From an uncultured bacterium (lineage in GTDB: Bacteria > GCA-001730085), in assembly GCA_964565945.1 (NCBI GenBank), contig CAZMGY010000021.1, forward strand, positions 44,300 through 108,299: a stretch of DNA of 64,000 nucleotides. Reading direction: 5' to 3'. The notes under the pieces were generated by a model, which saw nothing but the letters and a program-made list of their open reading frames with translations, searched no databases and was not told the DNA's origin. Below, in pieces: positions 1,685-38,585 of this stretch; position 1 is the first letter of the stretch, and each line of letters begins with the position of its first letter. The position numbers and the translations under genes were made by a program.

Positions 1685-3286
1685 TGTGGTTAATGGTTAG
1701 AAGCTTTGCTTACCTTTGGTGTTTTCACCCACTGGGTGAAAAGGTTTTTTTGTTGAAACCATTATACCAGTTGGGATTTCTGTGCTTTTTTGTTTTCTAT
1801 TTTTGGATGGGGGTTATAATAGAAAGGGTAGAGTGCGGAACTGTGAGGTCGCGCAGGGGGTCTTATGAGCTGGATAACCAAGCGGTCGCTCTAATGTTGA
1901 TATGCCCAACTTGAATGTGCAAAGAAATCAAGATTTTACAACCCAATTTACCCCTCATGAAACTTGGGAGGTGGATATTGCTTTTATTCTTCGCTTGCCC
2001 TGGGGTTTGTGAAAAGGGTGAATGCTTGTTTGTGCGTGAGTCTGCCATTTGGGCCGATAGTCAACTTTATAGGGGCCGAGAGGGTCTGTTGAGGGTGATT
2101 TTTAAGAAATTTTGGCTAATGCGGGTAGTGATTTCCTGGATCTTGAGCATTGTTTTTCGTTACAAAAATTATCCTTCTCGCCTCGAGGACTTGCAATGTC
2201 TGTATATGCCACAATCTTTGAAAGTGCCCAATAAATTGGTCAAACCTTTTTTGATTCCATTTACCTTGCCTACAAACTAGTATTTTCAAAGTTAACTGCT
2301 AGTATCTTTTTTAAATCTTCTTTCACAGTATTAGTGATATGTTCATTATCGTTTAAAGACTTGCATAAAATCTTAAGTTCTTTTTTTTGATCAGCATAAT
2401 CATCCGATATTGAAAATTTACTTATAGGGCTTCCTGTTTTTTGAGCTATTAAGCAATATAGTAACAATGAGGTTGTGTTATATCCACGAGCACTGCCAAA
2501 AACATCCCCTAGAGATATGAATCGAGATTCAAGCCCTGAAACATTTTGTGGATCAAAAGGCTTAGAATAAGCATTTTCAAAAATCTTTCTATAATTAACA
2601 TTTCACCGAATGGTTTTTGACCTATAAGAAAATCATAATATTCATCTTGAGTATATTTTTTAGGGGTTTCAATTTCATTAATCTTTTTACATTCTTCTAA
2701 AAAATCAAGTGGGCTTTCTTTATTTTCTAAAATAATTTTTAAGCCCTTTGCATAATCAAAATCTAAATCCAGATTTGTTTTAAAAATCTTAAAAGCTGAC
2801 TTTAATCTACCTTCTTTTAATTCTTTGTCTAATTTTTTTTGTAGCAAGTTTTTTGAATATTCCTGTGTGATTTTATTTATTCCTTTTTTAAATTTAAAAT
2901 ATAAGAATAATAATATCGCTAAAGATACAGCCCAAATTAAAAAGTCTAATGTTCGAATAAAACTTAGAATGCCATCAAAATCTTCATATATTAGAAAAAA
3001 ACTTGCTACAAAAAAAACGAAACAATAGAACTAACTATTCCTAGTTGAAGTCCCTGATTCCAATACAAATATTCTTTTTCTTGTTGCTTATTATTACTCA
3101 TACCCTAATATTTTCCTCACAAAATCAATATCAAAACCTTTGAAATTAGCATACAGTTATGATACAATCGTTTCGTTGAGCAGGGATGAAGGCAAGCAAA
3201 AAATAATCGTTTTCAGGAACGTATTTAAGAAAGACTTGATTTTTGTGCCCACTCTTCGATACAATGATCATTCTTTATGTTTTTGG

Positions 3287-3363
3287 CGCGGGGTGGAGCA
3301 GACTGGAAGCTCGTTGGGCTCATAACCCAAAGGTCGAGGGTTCGAATCCCTCCCCCGCTACCA
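3287..3363 (+). tRNA. tRNA-Met (CAT), initiator type
   Basis: 77-nt cloverleaf read by hand: acceptor CGCGGGG/CCCCGCU with a 1-72 mismatch, D-stem GAGC/GCTC, anticodon stem with three G-C pairs next to loop CTCATAA (anticodon CAT), T-arm GAGGG-TTCGAAT-CCCTC, encoded CCA. Near-identical in layout to E. coli tRNA-fMet. Confidence 0.85.
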
Positions 3364-4477
3364 ACTCTATAGACGGCTGGCTAGAATAATTGTCATTGGC
3401 AACTAATCTGGCGAGCCCTTTTTTTATGTCTGCGTTTTTCATAGGATTCTCCTGTGAGGCTATGCTTAAAATACCGGCCAAAGAGCCGTGAAGATCAATT
3501 GATAGATCATCCTGCCCAGCTTTTGGGGTGAGGGTGATTTTCTCGATCAGCCCCCTTAAAATCAGCGCAGCTTCCCCTCTGTTTTCTTCTTGGTCTAAAG
3601 ATGCGCGTAAATCACTGATTTGCCTGCGATAGCGCTCAGCCATGGCAGGGTGAAGCATAGGCGCGGATTTTGGCGTGGCTTCGAGCAAGGTTTCCAACTC
3701 TTTGAGGCGCTCTGAGGCTCTCTCCAGATCATCTTTTATCAAATCCACGGCTACACCGTCTTTGATGGCCTGGATGATGTTCTCGCGCTCCTTAGCGAGT
3801 TTAGCAGCCTCTGCGCGGTAGCCCTTTAAGCTCTGATCATGCTGGCTTTGCAGCTTATTAAAGTGCTTCGTATATTCCGCGCAAAACACCTTCAAGAGAT
3901 CATCTCTCATGAGATGGGTTTGTAAGGCTCCGAGCACCAGAGCCTCGATGCGCTCACGTTTGATGCTCTTTTTATTGGCGCACACGCTAGAGCCTTTATT
4001 GCGGGATTGTGAGCAGCCATAGCGCTCAGAATTGATCTTGGCATAGCCACCGCCGCATATTCCGCATTTTAGTAGCCCAGAGAGCAGATAATTGGGGCGG
4101 TTATTGCGGTGCAGCCCCTTAAGGCTGGTATCAAGGGTCTTTTGACGGGATTTGGCAGCATCCCAAAGCTCCTGATCAACAATCCGTAAATCAGGCACAT
4201 CTTGCCTGATCCAATCCGCCTCATCGTTTAGGCGGGTAACGCGCTTGCCCGTAGCTGGGTCTTTGATAAAATGCTGGCGGTTCCAGATTAATTCCCCAAT
4301 ATAAAGATGGTTATTTAAGATGCCGGTTCCGCGCCTGCGATTACCATTGATGGTCGATTGCCCCCAGGCCTTGCCTGAGGGGGCAGGGATGCCGTCTTTG
4401 TTCAGCGCATCGGCAATTGCCTTGGGAGATTTATTTTTAAGGGCGTATTCTTCGAATATGCGCTTAACGATTTTGGC
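3320..4477 (-). CDS. large serine recombinase, C-terminal recombinase/zinc-ribbon portion (downstream of an in-frame stop)
   Basis: Reading frame is open from 4477 to 3320 and continuous with the 4478..5011 ORF except for one TAA at 4478-4480. Translation includes 'WGQSTINGNRRRGTGILNNHLYIGELIWNRQ' (recombinase-domain signature) and a Cys-rich 'CGICGGGY...CSQSRNKGSSVC' zinc-ribbon. The 3' end overlaps the tRNA 3' end. Confidence 0.7.
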   Translation of the reverse strand, partial: AKIVKRIFEEYALKNKSPKAIADALNKDGIPAPSGKAWGQSTINGNRRRGTGILNNHLYIGELIWNRQHFIKDPATGKRVTRLNDEADWIRQDVPDLRIVDQELWDAAKSRQKTLDTSLKGLHRNNRPNYLLSGLLKCGICGGGYAKINSERYGCSQSRNKGSSVCANKKSIKRERIEALVLGALQTHLMRDDLLKVFCAEYTKHFNKLQSQHDQSLKGYRAEAAKLAKERENIIQAIKDGVAVDLIKDDLERASERLKELETLLEATPKSAPMLHPAMAERYRRQISDLRASLDQEENRGEAALILRGLIEKITLTPKAGQDDLSIDLHGSLAGILSIASQENPMKNADIKKGLARLVANDNYSSQPSIELVAGEGFEPSTFGL

Positions 4478-5011
4478 TTAGATTTCGTTGATCTCCCGAT
4501 CACCGCGTATGGCCTCGCCCTCAGAGTTAAATTGCTTCACGACTTTATAGCCGTAAGCAATGCCGCCTCCAGATTTCCCTTTTTCAACGCGCCCGCGAAG
4601 CCCGCGCCGCGTTTTATCTGCAAGGTCTTTCAGGCACATAGCGTTCATCGTGCCTTTAAGGCCGATATGCAATGTTGAGATTTCACCTTCGGACAGAGTG
4701 ATGATTTTAACGCCAGCAAATTCCATGCGCTTATAGATACCGGCAATATCTTCCTGATCACGGGACAGGCGATCCAGCGCCTCGCAGATTAGAATATCAA
4801 ACTCACCGTTCATGGCAGCCGTTAGTAGCGATTGAATACCAGGGCGCATAAGTGATGCGCCTGATATTCCTGCATCGCTATAGCAGTTTCCTAAATCCCA
4901 GCCTTCGGCTTTGGCTTTTTCTGACGCGAGGCGGATTTGATCTTCAATCGAAGCATCGCTTTGAAGATCAGAGCTATATCTGGCATAGATGCAGGCGCGT
5001 AATTTTTTCAT
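4478..5011 (-). CDS. large serine recombinase, N-terminal resolvase/invertase catalytic domain (ends at in-frame TAA)
   Basis: 177 aa; 'CIYARYSSDLQ' catalytic-serine motif, then 'DILICEALDRLSRD' and 'KRMEFAGVKIITL', typical of the serine recombinase catalytic domain. Confidence 0.75.
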   Translation of the reverse strand: MKKLRACIYARYSSDLQSDASIEDQIRLASEKAKAEGWDLGNCYSDAGISGASLMRPGIQSLLTAAMNGEFDILICEALDRLSRDQEDIAGIYKRMEFAGVKIITLSEGEISTLHIGLKGTMNAMCLKDLADKTRRGLRGRVEKGKSGGGIAYGYKVVKQFNSEGEAIRGDREINEI

Positions 5012-5473: not shown

Positions 5474-7138
5474 TCATGCGTGCCCATTAAGGTATATGCG
5501 CACAGGCAAGTTTTTTGGATAATTATTTTTGTGATAAGGGCTTTTACCTGCTAATTTTCGCCATGGCTCTATCTGGAAGTAAGCTAATTTCTCAGCTCTA
5601 ATCAAAGCTTTTCCATCAATAGCGATAAGCTGGTGGCTCATATCCATGCGCCCGATCTCATCTATGCTCATCACGGATGCGGCGCGCTCGTTAATACTTA
5701 AACGCCATGGAGAAACCGGATTATTGGGATCACGGGTAAGAGAGCGGGCTTTCATGGTTTTATTACCAATGCGAGCGCTCCATGCTTTACGATCAAGTTC
5801 CCCGCGTATGCTCCAAGCCTGCATAAAGCTTGATTGCTCTTCGATCAGGCCTGCCATTTGCTGGCCATAAATCTCAATTGGTTGGCGGCGGCTTTGAAAC
5901 ACCATCCATAGGCGCACGCCCTTGCCAGGCAATAGTGATAGCGCTTTGGAAAGATTAGGTAGCTTGCCGATATTACCCATCTCTTCTAAAAGCATCATGA
6001 TTGGTGAAGGCTTTGGCGCGGCGGCAATGGTTTCTAGTAACAATGTAGCGATCAGGCCAAGGGCAGAGCCATGGGTTTCTAATTTTGCTTCTGGCAAAAT
6101 CACATAGAGCGTGGTTTTGCCATCCAGAATATCGGATAATTTAAAATCAGAGCTGCTCATTGCCGCGCCCATAGGTGAGTGCGCGTCATAAATCTCAAGA
6201 GCGTTCATGGCGTTATCTCTAAATGCGCCATAGGTCTTGATATATTCAGATCGCAACATCTCTGCTAAGCCATTGCCGTAATCTTGAAGTAATCCGTGCA
6301 GCCAATCGCTTGAGCGCATCTCAAAGGCAATGGCTTTTTGTTTATTGCTTCCAGCCCAGATAAGTTTGCGCAAAGTTGGCAGGGTGCATTGATCAGGCAT
6401 AAACACAGCCATATATAAAAGGAATGTAATGATTAGCCTGCGCCCACCATTACGGAAGAACATACCATCGCCCATATCATTAGGCCTTTCTGCAATGAGC
6501 TGGAAGGCAATAGAGCGCGCAAGATCATGCAAGTCCTTGCCTCCGTTCTTCATCACATCAACAACCAAGATGCGCAGTGGATTAAAATTCACGCCCTTAA
6601 TGCCAAGAACATTAAAGGGATTAAAGATCAAAACATTTTGACCTCGCGCTTTACGGTACTTGGCGGTGATAGCTGTTAGCTCGCCCTTAACATCGGTAAC
6701 AAACATCGAGCCTCCAAACCAGTGCAAAAGCGCAGGAATAATTACCGAGATTGTTTTACCGGTGCGTGAAGGCGCATAGGTCAGCATGTGACCATTGCCA
6801 GTTAGGTATGGATCGTAAAAGAGCGGGGCATCTGCCATGCTGCCAACATAAAAACCACTGCGGTTTTTAATTAGCTCTTTTATGAAGCTGTCTTGGATTT
6901 CGGCCAGTCTTGCATGACCATAGCTATCAGATAGCTTGCGACTTTCATGCAATAGATTGATCTGATGCGCGGTATGTAATGACAGGGAAAGAAACTCCAT
7001 TATCTTTTTGATAAAGATAAGCAGCGCCAAGCCCATCACTGCCACGCCCCAAACATAACCGCCATTCATAGCGGCCAGCCACAATCCTGCAAGAAGCAGG
7101 ATTAGTGGCATGAGCAGGAAAATGAGGGCGGTAAACAT
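5474..7138 (-). CDS. type IV secretion coupling protein (TraG/TraD/VirD4 family ATPase)
   Basis: 554 aa; two N-terminal TM helices; Walker A-like 'YAPSRTGKTISVIIPALL'; 'MMLLEEMGNIGKLP' matches the T4CP 'DEFxNLG' Walker B region. Confidence 0.75.
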   Translation of the reverse strand: MFTALIFLLMPLILLLAGLWLAAMNGGYVWGVAVMGLALLIFIKKIMEFLSLSLHTAHQINLLHESRKLSDSYGHARLAEIQDSFIKELIKNRSGFYVGSMADAPLFYDPYLTGNGHMLTYAPSRTGKTISVIIPALLHWFGGSMFVTDVKGELTAITAKYRKARGQNVLIFNPFNVLGIKGVNFNPLRILVVDVMKNGGKDLHDLARSIAFQLIAERPNDMGDGMFFRNGGRRLIITFLLYMAVFMPDQCTLPTLRKLIWAGSNKQKAIAFEMRSSDWLHGLLQDYGNGLAEMLRSEYIKTYGAFRDNAMNALEIYDAHSPMGAAMSSSDFKLSDILDGKTTLYVILPEAKLETHGSALGLIATLLLETIAAAPKPSPIMMLLEEMGNIGKLPNLSKALSLLPGKGVRLWMVFQSRRQPIEIYGQQMAGLIEEQSSFMQAWSIRGELDRKAWSARIGNKTMKARSLTRDPNNPVSPWRLSINERAASVMSIDEIGRMDMSHQLIAIDGKALIRAEKLAYFQIEPWRKLAGKSPYHKNNYPKNLPVRIYLNGHA

Positions 7139-9696: not shown

Positions 9697-10644
9697 ATGG
9701 CTAATTTAAGGAAGAACTCAGCAAAATCTGAATTTTGGAAAAAGCATGTGCAGGAGTGGAAGAAGGGGAGGCTAATTCAATCTGAATATTGTATAAAAAA
9801 TAAAATATCAGAATCTGCATTTTCCAAATGGAAAACTAAATTATTCCCAAAACAAATTGGAACGCGGCGCTTAAAACAGCTTAAAAATAAATATTATAAA
9901 AACTCGAAATTGTCTAACCAGCAAATCGAAAATTTATTTGTAGGTTTTTTATGTGATGTGCCAGCGAAAGTTGCTGCTAAAGGGAGTGATATAAGTGAGG
10001 CTACTGCTTATAAATACTATAACAAAATACGATATGATTTAGTTAATGGAGCGCTAAATTATCCGCTTTTATTTTTTGGTTCAGGGATGCTTTTGATTTT
10101 AGGGGCACCACCAGATGTACATGAGTTAGCACGCAAATTTAAACCCATAAGCCCAAGTATAAAAGGCAGAGAAAAACATATATATTACGCGCTTTGTAAT
10201 GTTTTGATTTGTCATTCTTTTCGCAAATGGACAGTTTCCGAGATATATTATTTTTGGTTTCAGGGGTTACGGGCATATTTTTTAAAGCACTATGCTAAAA
10301 GTCATGGTCTAAATGAAAGTGATTGGAATATGGCTATGGCAGTTCAGATGCAAAATAAAATTTCAATTGCAAAAATGACAGTAACAATATGGCTGGATTG
10401 GATAAAAGAGGGAGGAAATACTACCCCTTTTTCTGAGGATGTATGGGAAGCTATTCGATATCAACATGACTATCATGCTGATGCTAAATCCTGGATAAAA
10501 CCTATGCTCCATGATTTAAAATGGGTCGTAGAGAGAAATAATAATTTAAAAAGAAGTACATACTGGGATTTCTTTAAACCTAGCAAGTCAGGTATTCTTG
10601 AAGTAAATAGAAGGATTCATGAATACCTAGAAAGAACAAACTAG
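9697..10644 (+). CDS. hypothetical protein with N-terminal transposase-OrfA-like HTH
   Basis: 315 aa, very AT-rich; N-terminus 'EFWKKHVQEWKKGRLIQSEYCIKNKISESAFSKWKTKL' resembles IS3/IS66 OrfA-type HTH; remainder unrecognised. Confidence 0.4.
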   Translation: MANLRKNSAKSEFWKKHVQEWKKGRLIQSEYCIKNKISESAFSKWKTKLFPKQIGTRRLKQLKNKYYKNSKLSNQQIENLFVGFLCDVPAKVAAKGSDISEATAYKYYNKIRYDLVNGALNYPLLFFGSGMLLILGAPPDVHELARKFKPISPSIKGREKHIYYALCNVLICHSFRKWTVSEIYYFWFQGLRAYFLKHYAKSHGLNESDWNMAMAVQMQNKISIAKMTVTIWLDWIKEGGNTTPFSEDVWEAIRYQHDYHADAKSWIKPMLHDLKWVVERNNNLKRSTYWDFFKPSKSGILEVNRRIHEYLERTN

Positions 10645-11933
10645 ATTCTGAGCGCTATCTTTTGCAGCCATTTATACTTCTGTTCAAGGCTAGGACCATC
10701 CCCATATCGGGGACGGTCATATCTATGTCCCATGAGTGCAGCCTGTACTTTGTCGGGCGGCTCTACTGCCGTCAGCCGATCCTCAAAACTGTGACGCAGA
10801 CTGTATAGGCTATGATCTTCACTTGGAAGTAAATTGTTATTACGCAGAAACTTATTCAGATTTCCTGATAGCTGATCAGGTTTGCGGTAATATCGCTCAA
10901 ATCCTTTTGGTAGATTTTGAAACGCATAGAGTGATGATCCCACCAATGGCATGTAGCGTTCACTGTAGGGTGTTTTAATTTCCTTGTCTTTTTCTGCATG
11001 AATATATATGTAGGGGATATCTGTATCCAGCCTAATATCTCCTGCCTTAAAATTCAGGCCAACTAGCTCAGAGGGGCGAGCACCTAAATCGGCCATAGCG
11101 AATAGAAATAACTGACACTCTCGTTCCAACCCTTTCAGGTTGTCCATGTTTAATAATACATCTCGAATATGGTTCACCTTAAAAGGTTGTCTTTTGCTCT
11201 TTATTTCTTTGAACCTTATACGGCTGAATAATTCATCGACGCTGATGTCTGCGCCGTGATTATCTTTTGCAAAGAACAGGAGTGTTCGTAGATGCGTAAA
11301 ATCCTTGTTTGGTGAATTGGGAGATAGGCTTTCTGATTCGACGCGTTCTTGCCACCATGACCGAAATGCTAATATATCGTTTCTGGTGATTTGCTCTACT
11401 GATAGGTCGCCACATATTTTAATAAAATTACTGACAGCTTTTACTTTAGGGTTTTTCCATTTTCTTAGTTGGGATTCATTTTTTCTTGTATGATTTGGTT
11501 TTTCAAACTCGATATATGAATCTAATGCTTCGCTTATAGGAAATTTAGGTTTTTCTTTTCCTCCTAGTAAGGCAGTAACGTTTTCATCGGTCTCGGGTAT
11601 ATCCGATTGTAGCGCATCTAAACGATCAATAATCTTGCTGACATCAGAACCTGCAAGCTCTGAAATAGATTTGTACGAGAAATTGAATGTTTGGGCTGTA
11701 TGAACGGCTTTGCTATATTCATAGTCCTTATCCATCGGTATATTTTTTACGATGTTATTCCAGTAATTATCTAATTCCTCTTTTAATACTGATGCACGCT
11801 GAATGGCAACAGATTCTGATGTCGTCTTCAAGCTTACCTGTATGATCTCCTGGCCATCATAATATTTCAGATACCGTTTTGGTATTCTGTGTTTAAAGTG
11901 GAACCAGCCTTTTATTTTTATAATATGGCGCAT
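10641..11933 (-). CDS. tyrosine-type site-specific integrase/recombinase
   Basis: 430 aa; C-terminal catalytic region with 'GARPSEL' (Arg), 'LYSLRHSFEDRL' (His-x-x-Arg) and 'MGHRYDRPRYG' (His/Tyr), typical of the phage integrase family. Confidence 0.8.
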   Translation of the reverse strand: MRHIIKIKGWFHFKHRIPKRYLKYYDGQEIIQVSLKTTSESVAIQRASVLKEELDNYWNNIVKNIPMDKDYEYSKAVHTAQTFNFSYKSISELAGSDVSKIIDRLDALQSDIPETDENVTALLGGKEKPKFPISEALDSYIEFEKPNHTRKNESQLRKWKNPKVKAVSNFIKICGDLSVEQITRNDILAFRSWWQERVESESLSPNSPNKDFTHLRTLLFFAKDNHGADISVDELFSRIRFKEIKSKRQPFKVNHIRDVLLNMDNLKGLERECQLFLFAMADLGARPSELVGLNFKAGDIRLDTDIPYIYIHAEKDKEIKTPYSERYMPLVGSSLYAFQNLPKGFERYYRKPDQLSGNLNKFLRNNNLLPSEDHSLYSLRHSFEDRLTAVEPPDKVQAALMGHRYDRPRYGDGPSLEQKYKWLQKIALRI

Positions 11934-14733: not shown

Positions 14734-15330
14734 TTGAAGCTCACTGATCTTGCAATTATATCCGCTGGACACCCATTCAGAGGGAAAATACTGGAAAAAT
14801 CCGGTAGCGGTATCCGTGCCGTGCAGATGAAAGACATCTCTATTGATCAGGGTGTTTGTTGGGAGAGCGTTATCGAAACGGAGCTTTCTGGCAAAAAAAA
14901 ACCTGCTTGGCTGATGAATGGGGATATCCTTTTCGCAGCCAGAGGCGCACGTAATTATGCCGTACTGGTAGATCATATTGTAGGGAAAGTCGTTAGTGCT
15001 CCTCATTTCTATATTCTCCGTGTGAACGAGCAATCGCTTTTGCCGGAATTTCTGGTCTGGCAGCTCAATCAAAAACCCCTGCAAAACTATTTCGACAGGG
15101 CAGCGCAAGGGTCGTTTACCAAGAGCATTAAACGCTCAATTTTAGAATGTGCTGAAATCACAGTACCGCCACTAGATAACCAAAAGCAAATCGTAGGCTT
15201 GCACATGACATTGATGCAAGAAAGAAAGCTCTATTCTGAATTGACCAGAAATGCGGATAAGTTAATGAATTCTATTGCCAGCAAACTTGCGGCAGGTAAA
15301 ACTCTACAGTTAAAAGGAATAAAAATATGA
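14734..15330 (+). CDS. hsdS: type I restriction-modification specificity subunit, single-TRD (half-size HsdS)
   Basis: 198 aa; one target-recognition-like region followed by an S-subunit-type conserved helix ('QKQIVGLHMTLMQERKLYSELTRNADKLMNSIA'); stop overlaps the hsdM start (ATGA). Confidence 0.55.
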   Translation: MKLTDLAIISAGHPFRGKILEKSGSGIRAVQMKDISIDQGVCWESVIETELSGKKKPAWLMNGDILFAARGARNYAVLVDHIVGKVVSAPHFYILRVNEQSLLPEFLVWQLNQKPLQNYFDRAAQGSFTKSIKRSILECAEITVPPLDNQKQIVGLHMTLMQERKLYSELTRNADKLMNSIASKLAAGKTLQLKGIKI

Positions 15331-23283: not shown

Positions 23284-26200
23284 TTGGGGAAAAAAGAAGC
23301 AAGGCGCACTAAGTCAAAGTCAACACCGCGTCAAACAGGTGGGGCAGGATACGACTTCGAAGATTTGATTGCAGCCTGGATGATGGTGAAGATGCTGCGT
23401 GAGATTAGGTTGCCAGGTGTTGAGGAGTTTGGTACAGCGATTCAATGGCAAGCGGAAGTGTTAGGTTGGGAACAGATCGATGACCTTCTGGTTACATGTG
23501 TGGTTGAAGAAGAAAAGAAAAAGCAGCTAGCCATCTCTTGTAAAAGCAACATGCAAGTTAGTGGGTCTGGGCTTCCATTTGATTTTCTCAAAAATGCTTG
23601 GTCACTATGGATAAAAGGCGAGCCTTTTAATAAGGAAAATGATTGCATGATGTTGGTTCAGAAAGGCAGCAATCAAAATTTTTTTACTGCTTGGGCAGAC
23701 CTAAAATATTGGTGTTCTGAGGGCGATGTAGAAACGGCTCTAGCACGAATTACAGCTTCTCAGAAACATAGTAAAATATACAATGGCGTTAAGGCTCCTG
23801 ATAAAAGCAGTAATTATACAAACGAAGATACTATTGCGCTTATACGCAGTTTAGAAGTTATTCCTGCAGATTTTCATTTAGCTAGTTCGGAATACGAAGA
23901 CACTTCATTATCCCATTGTCGTGATCTTTTGCAGGATGGCTCTGAAGAGACTGCAAAAAAGCTATGGGACTGGCTTCTCAAGAAAGCTAAAGTCAAACGT
24001 ATCTCAGGTGGAACATTACAGCTATCAGAGTTGTGGCAAGAATTGGTTCCAGCATTTGATTTAAAAGACCATCCAAACTTTCTTTCATCATGGAAGTCTC
24101 TTAAAGCTATATCCGAAGAATATAAGAGATCAATCGAAATTGAATTGCCTAATGGTCATAGTGTCATAAGGCCTGCCGAAGAAGACCTGATAGAGCATCT
24201 TAGAGATGGTCCAATATGTATTGTATATGGTAGCTCTGGAAGGGGTAAATCGGCGGTTGTTAAATCTACTTTAGATAAGAAGCTATCTGATTGGAATCAG
24301 GTTTGGTTTTCTCCGGAAAACCTAGACTTAGCTTCAAGTGAAAGGACTCGCTCAGAAGTGGGATTGCTTAGACCTTTGCAGGATGTACTTGCTCACTCAT
24401 CGGAAGAAAAAAATGTCCTAATTATAGATTCTGCTGAGAGGATTAACCCCGATAGCAGAAAAATTGTAAAGTCGCTTATTTCCAACCTATTGATACACAA
24501 TGGCGAACAGAAGAGTCGTTTGAACTGGCGAGTTATCATTGTTGGGCAAACCGAGGCTTGGGCATCTGGCAATTTTCATGAAATTTCAGGACTCTCTTCT
24601 ATTCAGCCTATAGAAATTTCTTCCCTTGACCCTTCGGATGTCAGAGCAGCTTTGCATTCAAGCAATCACTTATCTTGGCTTGCTTCGGATAACGAAGCGC
24701 TTATAGCCTTAGGTAACTTGAAAACTTTGGCTTGGGTAATGCGAGCTGGAACCATTTTTCCAAAAGGGGGAATGAATAGCATATCGTTGCCTGCAATCGC
24801 TGATCGTTTATGGTCGTATTGGACAAAAGATAAAATAAAACTTCAGAATCTTCTGATGCAACTTGCTGAACGTGAAGCTCAATTTGAACGTAGCTTTCCT
24901 ATCAGTGGGTTTGGTATTGATGTAAGCCAAGCTCTTGATGAAGGTTTGGAATGCTTGCCACTACGAAAAAGAAAAGAGACTAATTCAATCGAGTTTGAGC
25001 ATGACCTGGGTGCTGATTGGGCAAGGTTTCAGCGTTTAAAAGAAATAAAAAATGACATAAGCTCTTGGGCACCATTTGCTAGCAACCCTCTCTGGCATAA
25101 TGCTTTGCGCATGATGGGGCAACTCCTATTACGAGAAAAAACTGAACAAGGAACACTATGGGATGTTGTTTATGATGAAGCAGAAAAAACAAAAGTTGAA
25201 AATCCTTTAGCAGCAGATATTCTCTTAGATTCTTTGTGCCTTGATCCATTTGCTGCGCATTATCTTAATGAGCGGTCGGATATACTTTTTGCAGATAACG
25301 GGGCTCGTTTAAACCGCTTATTAAAACGTTTTCATCATATAGCGACCGTTTCAAATGTCTCTAGCGAGTCCTTGGACATTGATCCCTCGCTAAAATTGTA
25401 TTTAGAAGACATGCAAAGGTTGCCAATCTATGGTCGTTGGCCACAAATTGCACAATTTCTTTCAGATCACAAAGAACAAGTTTCCAGCCTAATCTCACCA
25501 ACTATTTCAAAACTATGTGAGACTTGGCTTACAACAACACCTCTCTATCTTGATCCTGAGGCAAATACGCCGATGCCCTATAGAAAGGTATTTGCAGAGC
25601 TTGCTTTAAGCACGGTAAGGACTTTACAACTTGAGCAAAAGAAAGGGCACTTGTGGCTCACAGATGACAGCGAAAAGCCTCTTTATGGGGCAGCATTTGC
25701 GGCTGTAAACGATCTTCCTGACGAAGTCTGCGAATGGGCTTTAGAAATGGCCTGTAGAAGACCTTGCAAAAAAGAAATACCTGAAGCGCTTGCAGCCTAT
25801 CGAGAAGAAAGAAGAAAAGAACATAGAGAAAAATTGCGCACTGATAAGGCTTATCCTGAAAGGCACGAGCGTTTACGTTCAATGCCTTCCGGTATTTCAA
25901 GCCATAGAGATTTACCTCCATGGCCATTAGGGCCACAAGGTAGTGTAGATAATACTTTTCGAGATTATTGCTTGAACTCAAACTCCATGGCTAGGCTGAT
26001 GTATCTAAGGCCAGAAGTTGCAAGCGAGTGCCTTCTTGCAATGCTAATAGATTATTCGCGTAGCCCTCTCCGAGATGATTTAGGTCTAGTGTATAGTCAC
26101 ACAGGATACCCTACGGCATATTGGAAAAGTCCATTTTTCCAGTTTTTACAGTTGAATAGCACTATAGCCATGGATTCCCTTATTTCGCTCGTTAATTTTT

Positions 26201-28536
26201 GTACAGATCGATGGGCAGATGATTTTGAGAGCGATTATAGTCTAGAGGTAAGTCTACGAGATGGTCAAAAACAAAGTTTGAAAGGAAACGGACATGTTTT
26301 CTCCTGGTCTCAAGAAAGCTCCACATCTAACGGACAGCTCTACTGTGCGTTAGCAGCACTAGAAAAATGGATTTATATTGAAATTGATAAGGACGCAGAT
26401 GTAGAGCCTGCGCTCAAGAGACTTATCGAAAACTCAAATTCTGTTGCAATAATAGGCGTGCTCCTAAATGTCGGTAAATACAAACCAAGCTTATTTACAA
26501 GCGCATTACAACCTTTTTTAGGGGTATATGAATTCTATCAAGCCGATGACAACCGCCTTCTAGATGCCGGGCATTGGTATGATGCTGGGGCATGGCCGTG
26601 TGAGGGTGAAAAAATATTTGAAATGGCCAAAGAGTGGCACTTTGCTCCGCACCGGAAAATTCCGTTGCGGCAATTAGCTGTTCAACTTGCTCTCAGTGAT
26701 AAAGAGACAGCCTCTTTTATTAAGGAAGCTTCTGAAAGTTGGGAAACACATTCAGTCGAGGAAAAATATGATTTAGAGGTAAGGATATTAAAAGCTGAAC
26801 TTGATCCTGAAAATTATAAGCCAGAAAAAGACCAACAATCTGGGCAGACATTATTGAGGTGTTATTACCCAGACAAGCTACAGAAGGACATAGAAGATTT
26901 TCAGAAAAGAAAAAGTCCGAGATGGCATGCTGTTACTATACCTATTCAATGTGAAGAATTATTGGCTTCGTCTCATAACATTACTGATGAAGAGGCTGAG
27001 AGATTAGCTTCTGCACTCAATGTTGTTCCTATAGAAGAAGATGAAGAGAGCATCCTCGCGACAGAAGCGGCGATCGCAGCTACGTTGTTAATAAAGGCAC
27101 CTAGCTGGCTAGACAAAAACCCTGATCTTAAAAAGAAAACAAATGAAATTATTCAAAATATAATTTCTAGTATTGGAGACACCTTAGAATCTTTGAGAGC
27201 TACCGGACATCTTATGAGTGATAGGTCGCTTGCCTTTGCCACTCATGTTGTTGTTGAAGAATTTATAAACAACCCGTCCCATGATAGGGACGTAGATGCT
27301 TCTGTATTAAGAATTTTAACCAGTGGTGACAACCAGGCTGTCTTCATTTTGATGAATGCGGCTTATCAAAATAGAGATAAGCTAGGTGATCGCTGGTGGC
27401 GTCTCATACAAATATCAATCTTTTGTGCTGGACTTAATAGCCTTAGTCCGGGCTTTAGAGAAGATGAAGATAAATCGATTGAATTACGTTGGGCGCGTTG
27501 GTTGATATGGTTGCGCACCCGTGATTTAAACGTTTCAGTAAATGCAGAAGCTATTGACCCAATCGGATTAGCGGTTCGTGTGGATCGTTTAAAAATGGCT
27601 CGTATTAAACGGCTATTTGGAAAAGATACAGACGGACGTTTGCGTTACTATCATCGAGGGTTTTTTGGCCTTGAGACCTACACGTTGGATAAAATGTTTT
27701 CATGGATGCTGAGTGATCATGGGCAAGGGGCTGACAATAGTTCGGATGTGCGTCTCTTAACTCAAAAACTTTGGGTGTTCGAAGCTTGGAGAAAGCAAAA
27801 AAGCGAAGAAGCCAACGATGAAGATAATGACCGTGATAGCCTTCCAAGCGATTTAGGTTACTCGCTTCTTCAAAAGCTATCAAAGCTTATGCTGACTGCA
27901 CAAAAAGATGAAGCGTCTAAGATTTGGAAGCCGATACTTTCTATGGGCGTAGATGGTCATCATTCTATTGAGCATTTCATTGATGGGTGGCTGCTAGGAG
28001 TGGTTCAAACCAAAAATACAAACTCCCTTTCTCAGTTTTGGAGAGAATTAATTGAGTTTGCGCTCTTATCTCCCAACTGGTCTCCCAATAAATATTGGTA
28101 TAAAGGAGAAGAGTTATTTCGACATCTTTTAGGATTTGGCTTGATTAATCTTGCGGAGTTTGAAGGTGCTCAAAACATTATTTTCGAAATAAAGGATCTG
28201 TATAAACGTTGGGCTGATACACACCTTTCTCAGGAAGAGGAAAATATAGCAGGCTTTGCATATTTTCTTTCCTCTAAAGTGGGGGCACCTATTCGGTATG
28301 ATGGTCTGCTGTGGATCAGAGACTCCTTGCGACCTCCCAATCCTGCATATTGGCGTCGAATGGAAACCGGACGCTCTCTTGTTGATCTTTTGGATGTTAT
28401 CATTACCGAAGAAACTAAACAAATATCTTCAGATTCTGAGTTTCGCGATGCGTTATTGAGGGTTGCAGCACATTTGGCTGATAGGCAAGTTCCTATTGCA
28501 TTATTGTTGCAAGAGAAGATTCGCCAGGTGCATTAG
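23284..28536 (+). CDS. very large (1750 aa) P-loop NTPase of unknown function; candidate defense protein
   Basis: Single uninterrupted ORF, AAGGAG RBS and apparent TTG start; Walker A 'YGSSGRGKSAVVKS' near residue ~320 and Walker B-like 'VLIIDSAERI' ~60 aa later; long helical C-terminus; no family recognised by eye. Confidence 0.8.
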   Translation: MGKKEARRTKSKSTPRQTGGAGYDFEDLIAAWMMVKMLREIRLPGVEEFGTAIQWQAEVLGWEQIDDLLVTCVVEEEKKKQLAISCKSNMQVSGSGLPFDFLKNAWSLWIKGEPFNKENDCMMLVQKGSNQNFFTAWADLKYWCSEGDVETALARITASQKHSKIYNGVKAPDKSSNYTNEDTIALIRSLEVIPADFHLASSEYEDTSLSHCRDLLQDGSEETAKKLWDWLLKKAKVKRISGGTLQLSELWQELVPAFDLKDHPNFLSSWKSLKAISEEYKRSIEIELPNGHSVIRPAEEDLIEHLRDGPICIVYGSSGRGKSAVVKSTLDKKLSDWNQVWFSPENLDLASSERTRSEVGLLRPLQDVLAHSSEEKNVLIIDSAERINPDSRKIVKSLISNLLIHNGEQKSRLNWRVIIVGQTEAWASGNFHEISGLSSIQPIEISSLDPSDVRAALHSSNHLSWLASDNEALIALGNLKTLAWVMRAGTIFPKGGMNSISLPAIADRLWSYWTKDKIKLQNLLMQLAEREAQFERSFPISGFGIDVSQALDEGLECLPLRKRKETNSIEFEHDLGADWARFQRLKEIKNDISSWAPFASNPLWHNALRMMGQLLLREKTEQGTLWDVVYDEAEKTKVENPLAADILLDSLCLDPFAAHYLNERSDILFADNGARLNRLLKRFHHIATVSNVSSESLDIDPSLKLYLEDMQRLPIYGRWPQIAQFLSDHKEQVSSLISPTISKLCETWLTTTPLYLDPEANTPMPYRKVFAELALSTVRTLQLEQKKGHLWLTDDSEKPLYGAAFAAVNDLPDEVCEWALEMACRRPCKKEIPEALAAYREERRKEHREKLRTDKAYPERHERLRSMPSGISSHRDLPPWPLGPQGSVDNTFRDYCLNSNSMARLMYLRPEVASECLLAMLIDYSRSPLRDDLGLVYSHTGYPTAYWKSPFFQFLQLNSTIAMDSLISLVNFCTDRWADDFESDYSLEVSLRDGQKQSLKGNGHVFSWSQESSTSNGQLYCALAALEKWIYIEIDKDADVEPALKRLIENSNSVAIIGVLLNVGKYKPSLFTSALQPFLGVYEFYQADDNRLLDAGHWYDAGAWPCEGEKIFEMAKEWHFAPHRKIPLRQLAVQLALSDKETASFIKEASESWETHSVEEKYDLEVRILKAELDPENYKPEKDQQSGQTLLRCYYPDKLQKDIEDFQKRKSPRWHAVTIPIQCEELLASSHNITDEEAERLASALNVVPIEEDEESILATEAAIAATLLIKAPSWLDKNPDLKKKTNEIIQNIISSIGDTLESLRATGHLMSDRSLAFATHVVVEEFINNPSHDRDVDASVLRILTSGDNQAVFILMNAAYQNRDKLGDRWWRLIQISIFCAGLNSLSPGFREDEDKSIELRWARWLIWLRTRDLNVSVNAEAIDPIGLAVRVDRLKMARIKRLFGKDTDGRLRYYHRGFFGLETYTLDKMFSWMLSDHGQGADNSSDVRLLTQKLWVFEAWRKQKSEEANDEDNDRDSLPSDLGYSLLQKLSKLMLTAQKDEASKIWKPILSMGVDGHHSIEHFIDGWLLGVVQTKNTNSLSQFWRELIEFALLSPNWSPNKYWYKGEELFRHLLGFGLINLAEFEGAQNIIFEIKDLYKRWADTHLSQEEENIAGFAYFLSSKVGAPIRYDGLLWIRDSLRPPNPAYWRRMETGRSLVDLLDVIITEETKQISSDSEFRDALLRVAAHLADRQVPIALLLQEKIRQVH

Positions 28537-33641: not shown

Positions 33642-34160
33642 TTAAATCTCCGGCTCAAAATCGATATCTTGAGCAGGGGTATCAAAGCCCATGCCTTGCT
33701 CCTGGCTTTTGCCGTGGGATTTACTGCGCTCTGCAACGCGGGCTTTCTTCTTCTCATGGGATTTTAGGTGCGATAAATCGCGGATTAACTTGGCACGCTC
33801 TTCCTCATGTTTTTTATGTAGCGAGTTAAACTGTATTTGTAGTTTCTGGCGCATTTCTAATTGCTTATGGATCAGCTCTTCACGCTCTGCTTGGTCGCGC
33901 TTATGCGCCTGCCAGGTTTCACCGTCATTAGCTTTGCGCTGCTTCCAATAGGAGCCATTTAGCTTGTCCCATAGACCTTTAAAACCTTTGCGTATCTGCG
34001 ATACCCTAAGGGCTTCTTCCTTTTGCCAGCGGGATTCCTGATAGGCGTTTTGCGCGGCTCGGTCTTTTCGGTGCTGCAATGTCATAGCGGCCTTGGTTTT
34101 AAGTAGAGGCACTAATTCTTTATTGTGATCTTTATCCAGCTCGCCGATGAATTTCTTCAA
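33642..34160 (-). CDS. mobilization relaxase, C-terminal charged portion (split gene)
   Basis: Highly charged K/R/E/Q-rich coiled-coil-like sequence; its frame stays open upstream to ~34278 and overlaps the end of the N-terminal relaxase ORF in a +1 frame. Confidence 0.5.
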   Translation of the reverse strand: MKKFIGELDKDHNKELVPLLKTKAAMTLQHRKDRAAQNAYQESRWQKEEALRVSQIRKGFKGLWDKLNGSYWKQRKANDGETWQAHKRDQAEREELIHKQLEMRQKLQIQFNSLHKKHEEERAKLIRDLSHLKSHEKKKARVAERSKSHGKSQEQGMGFDTPAQDIDFEPEI

Positions 34161-34272
34161 TAGGGTTGATGTTTTTCCACTGATCTTATTCTTAACTGTT
34201 TCAACGCTCGGCAGGTCTTCTGCTTTGCCAAGACGTTTTTCTATTTTTTTTTCTTCGCTGTGAGCTGGCGGG

Positions 34273-34962
34273 TTAGAGAATAAACCTCACCGTGTATATA
34301 TCTATAGCTACAAAGCCGCGCTTATCTCCTTTGGCCAGCCAGTAGCCAGATTCCAGGAGCGCTTGCTCAAAGCTTTTCTTATCATCCGACCTTGCCCAGC
34401 ATTGCTGTAAGTTGGCCTTGATGGTCTTGGGGTTTTGATTTGTGCGCGCCGCTTGCTGCCACTCAGCCCTTGTGAAGTTGAGCGGGTTTTTCTGGCTCTT
34501 ATCAATAAAGCCTTTGGGCAGTTGCCAACCATGATCTAAATAAAGCTGTTTTGATATATCTTTGAGCTTATTTTTAAAAAAGGGCTGATCAATTGCCTTC
34601 ATTTCTTTGGCATCAATGCGGCTCCAAACACAATGCGCATGACGGCGGCCATGTTTTTCATGAAAGACAATGACGCGGGGCTGATTTTCAAGCCCCAGCT
34701 TTTTCTCTATTTTTGTTAGTGCATCCTCAAATGCAGCTACCAGCACTTTTTCATTTTGTGGTGGTGATAGCGATAGGGAGAACATGAAACGTGAACATCT
34801 TGTACCTTTGCTAATCGCATGGATTTCATTAAGTGCGCCGCCTATTGTTTCACTGGCAAAACCCGATACTTCATGCACCCGCACATGCTCATTTTGCTCA
34901 CCATTCATGAGGTGCTTTGCCATTTGGCGTGCGCCGCCGCGTTTACTCGCCTTGATGATCAT
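34273..34962 (-). CDS. mobilization relaxase N-terminal nuclease domain (MobA/MobL-like)
   Basis: Start 'MIIKASKRGGARQMAKHLMNGEQ...' and three-His motif 'VIVFHEKHGRRHAHCVWSRID' typical of MOB relaxases. Confidence 0.65.
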   Translation of the reverse strand: MIIKASKRGGARQMAKHLMNGEQNEHVRVHEVSGFASETIGGALNEIHAISKGTRCSRFMFSLSLSPPQNEKVLVAAFEDALTKIEKKLGLENQPRVIVFHEKHGRRHAHCVWSRIDAKEMKAIDQPFFKNKLKDISKQLYLDHGWQLPKGFIDKSQKNPLNFTRAEWQQAARTNQNPKTIKANLQQCWARSDDKKSFEQALLESGYWLAKGDKRGFVAIDIYTVRFIL

Positions 34963-35353: not shown

Positions 35354-35783
35354 TTTTCTGTCCCCCTGTTGCCGGAAGGGCAGAGTTACTGGTAGAATAC
35401 GCATCCTTTGAAGAGCGGACTCCCTCTATTGCAGATAGTAGCGCCTCTTCTTGTAGCGGATCAGCAGCAATATCATAGCAGTTACCAGCGGTAGATAGCG
35501 TTGGCAACCAGCCCCCGCTACCAAATATAATCTATACCACAGTAGCCTTTAAGCTTATTGTGGTTTTTTTGTTTATGCTCAAATTCGGTTTGGGCTAACA
35601 CTGTGCTAACAAAATATTTTTACTCTTCTTTATTGTTATCTCACCCACTCTTTAATTTTTAACCTTTTTGTAACTTCAATTTATTAAATTCCTTATTACA
35701 AAAAAACTTTTAAATAAAAAGTCCCCCTGAGTAGATATGATATAATCACTTAAATTATGCACTGTTATAAGGATTAAACTTTA

Positions 35784-36038
35784 ATGAACATAGAAACTTT
35801 AAATCTATTAATTAAAGATGGCGAAGGCATTCGTGTCAAATTTAAGGAGAAATATTCTTCTAAAATAGCCCGTGATATAGTCGCATTTTCACATACTAAA
35901 GGCGGATATATTTTGCTTGGGGTTACGGAAAAGCTTATTGAAAGAAAATATCCCTTTTTTTTTCAACAGAACCCCCTAAATCCCCCTTATCAGAGGGTAT
36001 CTTATGTTTGTTTAAGAACTAAGTCAGCACCAAGTTAA
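35784..36038 (+). pseudogene. truncated AlbA_2/Schlafen-like (divergent AAA) domain gene fragment
   Basis: 84 aa; 'EGIRVKFKEKYSSKIARDIVAFSHTKGGYILLGVTE' resembles the N-terminus of AlbA_2-domain proteins, but the ORF stops after ~80 aa; flanked by 22-bp direct repeats. Confidence 0.35.
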
Positions 36039-36119
36039 AAATCTCGGCTAACACCATGCTAACAAAACACCCCAAACCATCAAAAAGCAACATCAACCAA
36101 GACAAAAATAAAAAGCCCC

Positions 36120-36161
36120 TAACCCAAAGGCCGAGGGTTCGAATCCCTCCCCCCGCTACCA
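36120..36161 (+). repeat. attR-like direct repeat of the tRNA-Met 3' end
   Basis: TAACCCAAAGGCCGAGGGTTCGAATCCCTCCCCCCGCTACCA matches tRNA positions 3323-3363 with one substitution and one extra C. Confidence 0.8.
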
Positions 36162-36187
36162 AAAATTCATTTTTAAAGGAGACAGCT

Positions 36188-37291: not shown

Positions 37292-37327
37292 TTAAAATAA
37301 ACGACTAATAAAGATCAACAAGAGGCG

Positions 37328-38003
37328 CTACCAAATAAAGAATACTTTGTTAGCTGGGTTTTTATATGTATCGAATGTTGAATAGGCCTTATCTCTGCCG
37401 TTGTCTTTGAATGCCCCAGTGCTCCCCATCAAGTTTTGGTGACTAAATTTAGAGAAACTGCTTTGCCTCCAAGGCTTGCCCGAGGCGGTAATAATACCCT
37501 CTTTGTTTAGTTCAGCCACTATCGCTTTTGGGGATTTATTTTTATAGGCGTAATCTTCAAATATGTGCCAACTGATACTGGCTTGCTCCCCGATGATTTC
37601 ACAATCACCTCGAATAGCCTCACCTTCGGAATTCTGTTTTTTCATCACCTTATAACCATAAGTTAAACCACCGCTGGATTTTCTTTTTTCAACACGTTCT
37701 CGTAATCCACGGCCTGTTTTATCGGCAAGGTTTTTGAGGAAACAGGGCATTCATCGTTCTTTTTAGCCTAATATGAAGTGCTAAGATTTTACCTTTGCTG
37801 AGCGTAAAAATTTAAACTCCTGCAAATTCCATGCGTTTAAACAGACCCGCAATATTTTCCTGATCACGAAAAAGATAATTGAACGCCTCGGCTACCAAGA
37901 TATCAAATTCATCATTCATGGCAGCCGCCATAAGGGCTTGAATACCTGGACACAAAAGGGAGAGGCCCCCAGATATTCCAGCATCGATGTATGACATACC
38001 CAT
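37328..38003 (-). pseudogene. degraded large serine recombinase (remnant paralog of the island recombinase)
   Basis: Two short ORFs (37812-38003, 37328-37750) align to residues ~45-320 of the 3320-5011 recombinase ('DILVAEAFNYLFRDQENIAGLFKRMEFAGV' vs 'DILICEALDRLSRDQEDIAGIYKRMEFAGV'); catalytic N-terminus missing, frame broken. Confidence 0.6.
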
Positions 38004-38585
38004 GTTCCACCCTTGGCGTTGTGCTTTTTCGTTGCAAAGTCTGATTTGATCTTCGCAAGCCTAAAAAAGAACTGGTACAGTAGTAGCATTATCAGACTCG
38101 TAGTGAAACTTAACAGGATATTTTAAATTACATAGTGATATTTTATAATGGCCTGCGTTTGCATTCTCATTTGGGTTATATCAGCCCCAATGACTACGAA
38201 GCAGTAACATGGCCAAACTGAGTAAAGTTGCTTAACTGGCCTGTACACATCCATTAGACCATTCCATTTAGAAGATGATGTGCTAAACCATAGCAGCCGT
38301 TCTCACTTTAGGACTTACATGACCCAATACAATGGATGTGACCAATTAGCAAAAATCGTTATATTTTAGAAAAATGTAATGCTTGAGAGTGTATGGGTAG
38401 ATTTTAGTTTATTTTGCAAATACAGCTACAATCATATATACTCGTCAAGGATTATTTATACTTGGAGATACGTTGTGGACATGTCTAAGTTCTCTGAGCT
38501 TTGATTCACAGCAAAGCTTCAAATAAAAAGTTAAGGAACTTTCAAAGAAAATAGCTTTTATCATCAAAAACAGAAGGATGTCATT

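Follow-up and report, generated by a model that had tools for sequence, protein, structure and literature searches.

A serine integrase gene with a nonsense codon in a strain-variable defence island at an initiator tRNA gene

We analyzed a stretch of 64,000 nucleotides from an uncultured bacterium (GTDB lineage Bacteria; GCA-001730085), positions 44,300 to 108,299 of the forward strand of contig CAZMGY010000021.1 in GenBank assembly GCA_964565945.1, which we call the window. A genomic island in this window adjoins an initiator tRNA gene, and the integrase gene of the island (int), which encodes a large serine recombinase, carries one in-frame stop codon. The features at this end of the island are as follows, with all positions counted from the first letter of the window.

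3287-3363, plus strand: initiator tRNA-fMet gene, anticodon CAT, the target of the island (ARAGORN; Rfam tRNA, 60.7 bits)
3320-5011, minus strand: large serine recombinase (integrase) pseudogene of 563 codons with a single in-frame stop
4478-4480, minus strand: TAA stop at codon 178, from an ancestral CAA (Gln), where the catalytic domain and alphaE region meet the recombinase domain
4634-4636, minus strand: F126C lesion (codon TGC), from the SNP at 4635 and the protein alleles P0122 and P0123
5011-5202, minus strand: small open reading frame (ORF) of 63 amino acids overlapping the int start (ATGA), recognized by tblastn conservation upstream of int

The ATG at 5011 on the minus strand starts an ORF of 177 codons (4478-5011) that is closed by the TAA at 4480-4478, and past this codon the same frame stays open for 385 codons more (3320-4477), up to a TGA at 3322-3320. 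Pfam searches placed the catalytic Resolvase domain (PF00239, E = 1.6e-25) before the stop, at residues 7 to 146, and the Recombinase domain (PF07508, E = 3e-22) followed by a zinc ribbon (Zn_ribbon_recom, PF13408, E = 1.4e-10) after it; the first codon past the TAA is also the first of the Recombinase domain. The zinc-ribbon cysteines C316, C319, C333, and C344 are invariant in the alignment of the integrase family, and a charged, heptad-like stretch is visible at residues ~375 to 445. A PDB sequence search, which matched the catalytic domain only, aligned the catalytic motif YARYS13 with YTRVS12 of the TP901-1 integrase (3bvp, E = 3e-13). A full-length homologue aligned across the stop by tblastn as a single segment in one frame (residues 2 to 562, 75.6% identity), so the locus is one gene carrying one stop and not a chance arrangement. 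These results and the coordinates agree with a preliminary description of this DNA, made from its letters alone, in which the catalytic-domain ORF and the downstream recombinase and zinc-ribbon region were said to share a frame and to be separated by the TAA at 4478-4480. Since this TAA breaks the continuity of the polypeptide between the catalytic and DNA-binding domains, the gene is filed as a pseudogene of the large serine recombinase family, and we infer that integrase function has been lost.

To trace the stop, we used the best 120 of thousands of full-length relatives drawn from a collection of 5.8 billion proteins. At the alignment column of the stop, 116 of these 120 homologues have Gln. 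The nearest relative, present in ENA assemblies ERZ23495365 and ERZ23495063 (contigs L092 and L093), is 89% identical in nucleotide sequence and has CAA at codon 178, so a single C-to-T transition explains the TAA. The CAA-to-TAA nonsense mutation proposed earlier is therefore borne out, and the string 'GEQASI' in a relic paralogue at 37451-38060 confirms the accompanying remark that this relic has Gln at the equivalent site. The truncated 177-amino-acid product was also found in the Logan assemblies of six runs (SRR12008128, SRR12008134, SRR12008135, SRR19984992, SRR23257858, and SRR30621489), which differ from the window by 2 to 5 SNPs over the shared region, and the exact 41-nucleotide context of the stop recurs in assemblies of independent runs. 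When the N-terminal fragment was clustered at 90% identity, the cluster held two 177-residue alleles, from 1 and 7 contigs, together with the relative from the two ENA metagenomes. These data show that the stop is fixed in the island-bearing lineage.

Decay of the gene has gone little further. The F126C change is confined to the window strain and contig L001, the other island-bearing strains retain TTC (Phe), and Phe at residue 126 is nearly invariant across the family. Over the 212 alignment columns that are at least 95% conserved, the integrase departs from the family at 4, one of them F126C, against a family mean of 2.5; because there are only 4 such departures, decay seems to have just begun, and the inactivation of the integrase appears to be recent.

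The tRNA gene has a C1/U72 mismatch, an A11:U24 pair, and GGG/CCC in the anticodon stem (three G:C pairs). A 1:72 mismatch, A11:U24, and G:C pairs in the anticodon stem are hallmarks of bacterial initiator tRNAs. The final 14 codons of the int frame and its TGA (3320-3363, 44 nucleotides) are the reverse complement of the tRNA, and the TGA falls in the anticodon loop; the last codons of the gene do lie on the complement of the tRNA 3' end, as had been noted. The residues encoded by the element itself end at G553, and the integrated form adds 10 codons of host tRNA antisense. When the left attachment site, attL, was compared with a reconstructed attP, the int frame of the excised form would instead run on for 28 codons towards mobC, for a protein of 581 amino acids. 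The attP crossover is located within the 3' terminal part of int, so that the 10 final codons come from the host and are exchanged when the island excises. The last ~11 nucleotides of the tRNA, in turn, come from the island or the shared core. The attachment sites and the body of the island are placed as follows.

3323-3351, minus strand: host-derived part of the int ORF, codons E554 to L563, antisense of the tRNA T arm and anticodon stem (attL compared with attP; tails of homologues)
3352-3364, plus strand: attL core, CCCCCGCTACCAA (exact copies; empty-site contigs overlap by exactly these 13 bp)
3365-35511, no strand: island body, 32,160 bp core to core (empty-site contigs L094 to L099)
35485-35524, plus strand: attR, made up of the P arm at 35485-35511 and the 13-bp core at 35512-35524 (reverse complement reads LVAGAGCQRYL)

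The 13-bp core is present in exact copies at 3352-3364, 35512-35524, and 36150-36162. We found matching empty sites in contigs of six other runs (L094 to L099), which were reached through the neighboring tgt gene. In these contigs, window positions 2740 to 3364 are joined directly to 35512 onward, with an overlap of exactly the 13-bp core and 99.9 to 100% identity. The coupling protein gene of the island occurs in 5 contigs, and tgt occurs in 23. The island is thus strain-variable, 32,160 bp long, and has defined ends and a matching empty site. The right end was also recognized in a homologue, P0110, whose attP-form C-terminal tail is the peptide LVAGAGCQRYL read from the reverse complement of the second core and its left flank. 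On the P0110 contig, int, the junction, mobC, and an intact 439-amino-acid relaxase gene follow one another on one strand, an arrangement that the window's island should show once circularized. The junction of P0110 (contig L091) is reproduced when, in the window, the part of attL next to int is fused with the part of attR next to mobC, and the attR sequence is identical to the L091 junction over 33 nucleotides. In both L091 and L092, int, attP, mobC, and relaxase form one uninterrupted stretch.

The reconstructed attP has arms that are complementary at 16 of 24 positions around one dinucleotide, and every other candidate center scores 9 or less. This center is the GG with which TTGGTAGCGGGGG ends (int strand), corresponding to CC at 3352-3353, and in 8 further attP-type loci of the family it again scores highest. 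The attachment sites of large serine integrases such as those of phiC31, Bxb1, and A118 are built of two dyad arms flanking a 2-bp staggered cut. The short sites at this island, with their imperfect dyad arms and shared 13-bp core, match that design, and the CC is probably the crossover dinucleotide.

The mobilization genes and two of the larger other genes of the island are listed here.

5474-7138, minus strand: intact VirD4/TraG-type coupling protein gene (Pfam T4SS-DNA_transf, E = 7e-54; TraG-D_C)
33693-34962, minus strand: MOB relaxase pseudogene with two frameshifts (tblastn with a Sphingobium baderi plasmid relaxase)
34943-35404, minus strand: gene for a MobC-type relaxosome accessory protein (Pfam MobC), which in the circular form lies directly downstream of int and attP
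10641-11933, minus strand: gene for a 430-amino-acid, tyrosine-recombinase-like protein inside the island, with DUF6538 and a phage-integrase SAM-like domain
23284-28536, plus strand: STAND NTPase gene, 1,750 amino acids, with a partial match to Avs4 (PADLOC, E = 2.9e-16)

The intact 430-amino-acid relaxase from the Sphingobium baderi plasmid aligned with the window in pieces: residues 1 to 222 in frame -2, residues 238 to 425 in frame -3, and a short piece between them in the remaining frame. The two shifts fall in a (TA)3 repeat near 34294-34300 and a run of nine A residues (A9) near 34245-34253. Runs of this kind are tracts where transcriptional slippage can partly rescue a frameshift. A look-up of the relaxase product gave a match only when its start was moved to 34962, and the 253-amino-acid ORF gave nothing; with the moved start, the truncated 229-amino-acid product was also found in SRR19984992. 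The two frameshifts and the independent recovery of the truncated product in a second run establish that the relaxase is broken, as first supposed. Among the island ORFs of at least 120 amino acids that were scanned, and the small ORFs scanned in part, there was no type IV secretion system ATPase or mating-pore (VirB4-type) family, and the Pfam scan of island ORFs found one Resolvase-domain gene only. With a frameshifted relaxase, MobC, a VirD4-type coupling protein, and no pore genes found, the island has the gene content of an integrative mobilizable element (IME).

Its cargo comprises a type I restriction-modification (R-M) system with an embedded PDC-S21 gene, the Avs4-like STAND gene, ArdA, AbiEi/Eii, and the tyrosine-recombinase-like gene, and, judged from domain matches in Pfam and PADLOC, both this cargo and the coupling protein look intact. 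The Avs4 match is limited to residues 932 to 1141 of the STAND NTPase, which leaves most of the protein outside any assigned family. An extra hsdS fragment (14734-15330) lies upstream of the type I R-M operon, ~3 kb from the tyrosine-recombinase-like gene, and hsdS switching is possible.

We propose the following history for this locus. An intact integrase would have recombined attP, inside the 3' end of its own gene, with attB where the T stem and acceptor stem of the tRNA gene meet. The island would have supplied the last ~11 nucleotides, leaving the tRNA whole, and the int frame would after integration have entered the antisense of the host tRNA and stopped in the anticodon loop. In this lineage, one C-to-T transition then turned Gln-178 (CAA) into TAA and left a 177-residue catalytic fragment that lacks the DNA-binding parts of the protein (recombinase domain, zinc ribbon, and coiled coil). 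The window strain has since gained F126C, and the relaxase has two frameshifts, so that the island is now predicted to be unable to excise or to be mobilized by its own proteins while its defence cargo is kept intact. We hold this whole account, a 32.16-kb integrative mobilizable defence island inserted at tRNA-fMet whose integrase was recently pseudogenized and which is now decaying, with considerable confidence.

The preliminary description had gone a step further and suggested that the island is immobilized. That the integrase and the relaxase are broken stands, and the 177-amino-acid product, without any of the DNA-binding domains, is predicted to be unable to synapse attachment sites; immobility is what we infer from these lesions, and several observations weigh against it. 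The cores and arms of attL and attR look intact, the P arm equals that of the attP-form relative over 33 nucleotides, and an integrase acting in trans could therefore still move the island. Island-free chromosomes exist that are otherwise near-identical, with flanks of 99.98 to 100% identity. In addition, island contigs in three runs end exactly 30 nucleotides into the flanks (L001, L102, and L104 at 3335; L101 at 35541). If Logan assemblies derive from a k = 31 graph, which we take to be the case, contig ends at 30 nucleotides would mean that empty sites co-occur in the same samples. Co-occurring empty sites would fit a mixture of strains as well as ongoing excision or excision in trans, and a second, intact paralogue may lie beyond the 64 kb of the genome seen here. 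The coupling protein, too, is intact. It is nevertheless unlikely that the island, with its own integrase dead, is still mobile through an integrase (and relaxase) supplied by another element in the genome or community. Apart from int, the family is represented in the window only by a badly degraded relic, the same TAA is present in all island copies seen, which fits clonal descent better than repeated transfer, and the presence and absence of the island are equally well explained by a mixture of strains with an ancestral empty site.

A second alternative to inactivation is that the stop is programmed, being either read through or recoded as Gln or else separating two functional polypeptides, one catalytic and one for DNA binding. 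The TAA does sit exactly at a domain boundary, and the gene of the nearest relative (L092, 1292-3123, and L093) is also split close by, at codon ~203. However, the break in the relative is a CT duplication that causes a +2 frameshift, and since this lesion differs in kind and site, the two inactivations are independent and are not a conserved architecture; the separate breakage of two integrase genes in this small group suggests that its elements often lose their mobility. None of the 120 homologues has a stop at the codon-178 column. The window also argues against any special reading of TAA, which closes 14 of its 34 long ORFs and is their commonest terminator, so we rejected stop-codon reassignment. 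The int stop stands in the context TAA-G, an efficient terminator context, and for these two reasons we consider it neither recoded nor leaky. No in-frame ATG, GTG, or TTG occurs from the stop to the GTG at 4198, the first canonical start beyond it, and a start there would skip most of the Recombinase domain. The gene has since gained the further damaging change F126C, and together these points make a programmed stop very improbable.

Less probable again is that the island runs from the tRNA to a 48-bp tRNA repeat at 36115-36162, in the manner of classical tRNA islands with long direct repeats, so that the recombinase relic and tgt would adjoin its end. This repeat is the longest direct repeat of the tRNA 3' half (92% over 39 nucleotides), but the empty-site contigs keep 35525-36162 and join 3364 to 35512/35525, and the attP-form contig L091 puts the island end directly upstream of mobC, which rules the repeat out as the end. 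The last alternative, that the TAA is a sequencing or assembly error in a truly intact gene, would need only a one-base difference in a gene whose remainder is almost undamaged, but it has practically no chance of being right: six independent run assemblies with 2 to 5 SNPs elsewhere carry the identical truncated product, the 41-nucleotide context recurs, and two truncated alleles exist, so the TAA is real and assembly error is ruled out.

Two older features lie to the right of the island.

35525-36162, plus strand: 638-bp remnant of an older tandem element, bounded by two exact 13-bp cores and present in island-free strains
37451-38060, minus strand: recombinase relic paralogue, residues 20 to 221 only (tblastn with a full-length homologue)

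The 638-bp segment ends in a near-perfect tRNA-fMet 3' half (36115-36162, one extra C) with the third core at 36150-36162, and it appears to be what is left of an earlier element that had entered the same tRNA in tandem. Because the empty-site contigs retain this segment, the tRNA copy at 36115 belongs to the older remnant. A truncated ORF (35784-36038) is found within it. The relic paralogue has one stop and one frameshift, lacks the catalytic Ser region, and reads NYLFRD in place of DRLSRD. It is present in empty-site contigs L094 to L097, and since both it and the remnant occur in island-free strains, they belong to the chromosomal backbone; the assignment of this second recombinase relic to the island in the preliminary description does not hold.

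The relic lies just past tgt and points towards it, and tgt separates it from the tRNA fragment. The 13-bp core was not found at the 3' junction of the relic with up to 3 mismatches allowed, and we discarded a core-like 9-mer there (~37326-37338) as not significant, with ~0.5 chance matches expected. On the other side of the island, the region from ~1700 to 3280, between the enolase and DivIC genes and the tRNA, is AT-rich (GC ~0.38) and has short ORFs only. The enolase-bearing contigs of other runs that we examined all end near window position 1743. Among named proteins, the enolase is nearest to that of a 'PVC group bacterium ex Bugula neritina' (76%), with Paenibacillus next, and LPS-core genes in the neighborhood indicate no more than a Gram-negative host.

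We also asked how the integrase family uses its target, in a genomic survey of one genome per GTDB species that yielded at least 585 loci, mostly from Gamma- and Alphaproteobacteria, with details taken from the best 80. Antisense of tRNA-Met(CAT) containing the int stop was found in 48 of these 80 loci, and several others end in the tRNA 3' half only. Among the best 120 protein homologues, 69 end in ..GxGFEPxxFGL and 28 in ..GSGGxI, and these 97 C-termini are antisense of the tRNA-fMet 3' region in one of two frames; ~13 more have long tails that read through attP towards mobC. The tRNA overlap at the island is thus present as first described and is not peculiar to this copy: it is a trait of a widespread integrase clade that has attP inside the 3' end of its own gene. 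Loci L038 and L055 and other alphaproteobacterial loci (..FEPxTFRL) have an int gene that ends in the tRNA 3' half from the anticodon loop, preceded by non-tRNA sequence, and no complete tRNA. Such loci may be attP forms with a full tRNA half as P arm, or tandem junctions. By tblastn, the 63-amino-acid ORF that overlaps the start of int was found directly 5' of this gene at 22 of the 80 loci and also on contig L092; it matched no Pfam family and is a candidate regulator or directionality factor.

Across the clade, the C-terminus would consist of ~10 residues encoded by host tRNA in the integrated state versus 28 to ~55 residues encoded by the element, towards mobC/oriT, in the excised state. 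The integrase belongs to a large clade that appears dedicated to tRNA-fMet, with hundreds of species-level genomes, mostly Proteobacteria, in which the C-terminus would be swapped by the enzyme's own reaction. One could suppose that the swap is functional, a sensor of the integration state that biases directionality or expression and not a neutral by-product, but we regard such a role as unlikely.

The closest parallel to the island is found in Dehalococcoides, whose genomic islands carry DsiB, an ssrA-specific large serine recombinase (McMurdie et al. 2011; PMC3146451). In both cases the island is integrative and mobilizable and has a large serine recombinase directed at the 3' end of a tRNA or tRNA-like gene; the recombinase gene sits at the attL end with a 3' end that overlaps attL and the target RNA gene (always so for DsiB), and past the target, on its downstream side, there are a short direct repeat and tandem arrays. 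The DsiB target, however, is transfer-messenger RNA (tmRNA), with the crossover in the T loop and a 20-bp repeat, whereas the target here is tRNA-fMet. DsiB is accompanied by a small serine recombinase, DsiA, whereas this island has no second Resolvase-domain gene, and the C-terminal overlap of DsiB is divergent, whereas the tRNA-encoded tail here is stereotyped. By the description of DsiB, this element is an analogue of the ssrA islands and not a member of them. The serine integrases of phages and integrative and conjugative elements (TP901-1, phiC31, Bxb1, A118, and SPbeta) share the domain order of Resolvase, Recombinase, and zinc ribbon, and they share short attachment sites with dyad arms around a central dinucleotide. 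They differ in having mostly protein-coding targets, in contrast to a tRNA gene that is targeted and restored, and here attP lies within coding sequence. In INPHARED there was no close phage homologue of the integrase, and since the best match reached only 36% identity, we rejected a phage origin. By its description, the serine recombinase of the Paracoccus phage vB_PamS_Pami6, for which integration in a tRNA-Met gene has been reported (PMC6536676), is similar in recombinase type, in target, and in coming from a proteobacterium, but it belongs to a prophage and not to a mobilizable island.

IMEs of the Tn4451/TnpX type (PMC5704250) likewise combine a serine recombinase with mobilization genes, lack mating-pore genes, and have very short flanking repeats. 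They are, however, Firmicute elements that insert in and disrupt dispensable genes or have low site specificity, in contrast to a mainly proteobacterial family that preserves an essential tRNA, and in a 2017 review (PMC5704250) the IMEs with serine recombinases are presented as elements of Firmicutes whose insertion disrupts the target gene. In the tRNA islands of tyrosine integrases (Islander; PMC4383910), the tRNA 3' end is the target, the gene is restored, the integrase adjoins the tRNA, and tandem remnants occur, as here, but the recombinase is from another family; according to the Islander authors, writing in 2014, serine integrases were not known to use tRNA genes as targets (PMC4383910). 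The literature on tRNA-targeting serine integrases that we found consists of the Dehalococcoides ssrA case, a single Paracoccus phage, and a few tycheposons with large serine recombinases. We found no description of a tRNA-fMet-specific serine integrase clade in the searchable, incomplete literature, which is weak evidence of novelty, and the preference of this family for tRNA-fMet appears to be little described.

Taken by itself, a decaying mobile island whose integrase has a nonsense mutation is an ordinary finding. To this the analysis adds the precise ends and attachment sites of the island, direct population evidence for a variable island with a fixed stop, and the recognition of a widespread clade behind the tRNA overlap. 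For annotation, the locus is a 32,160-bp element with pseudogenized integrase and relaxase whose true ends are the 13-bp core and not the 48-bp tRNA repeat. For the organism, the island is probably fixed in place unless helped in trans, with its type I R-M, Avs4-like, AbiE, and ArdA cargo intact. The tRNA-fMet-specific clade is of moderate interest. The data document widespread serine integrases that target and restore an initiator tRNA gene, and in older surveys serine integrases were not known to use tRNA targets. The precise candidate attP/attB pair and crossover proposed for this clade may offer a possible new orthogonal integrase, and its target, the initiator tRNA gene, which all bacteria have, is fairly conserved between them.

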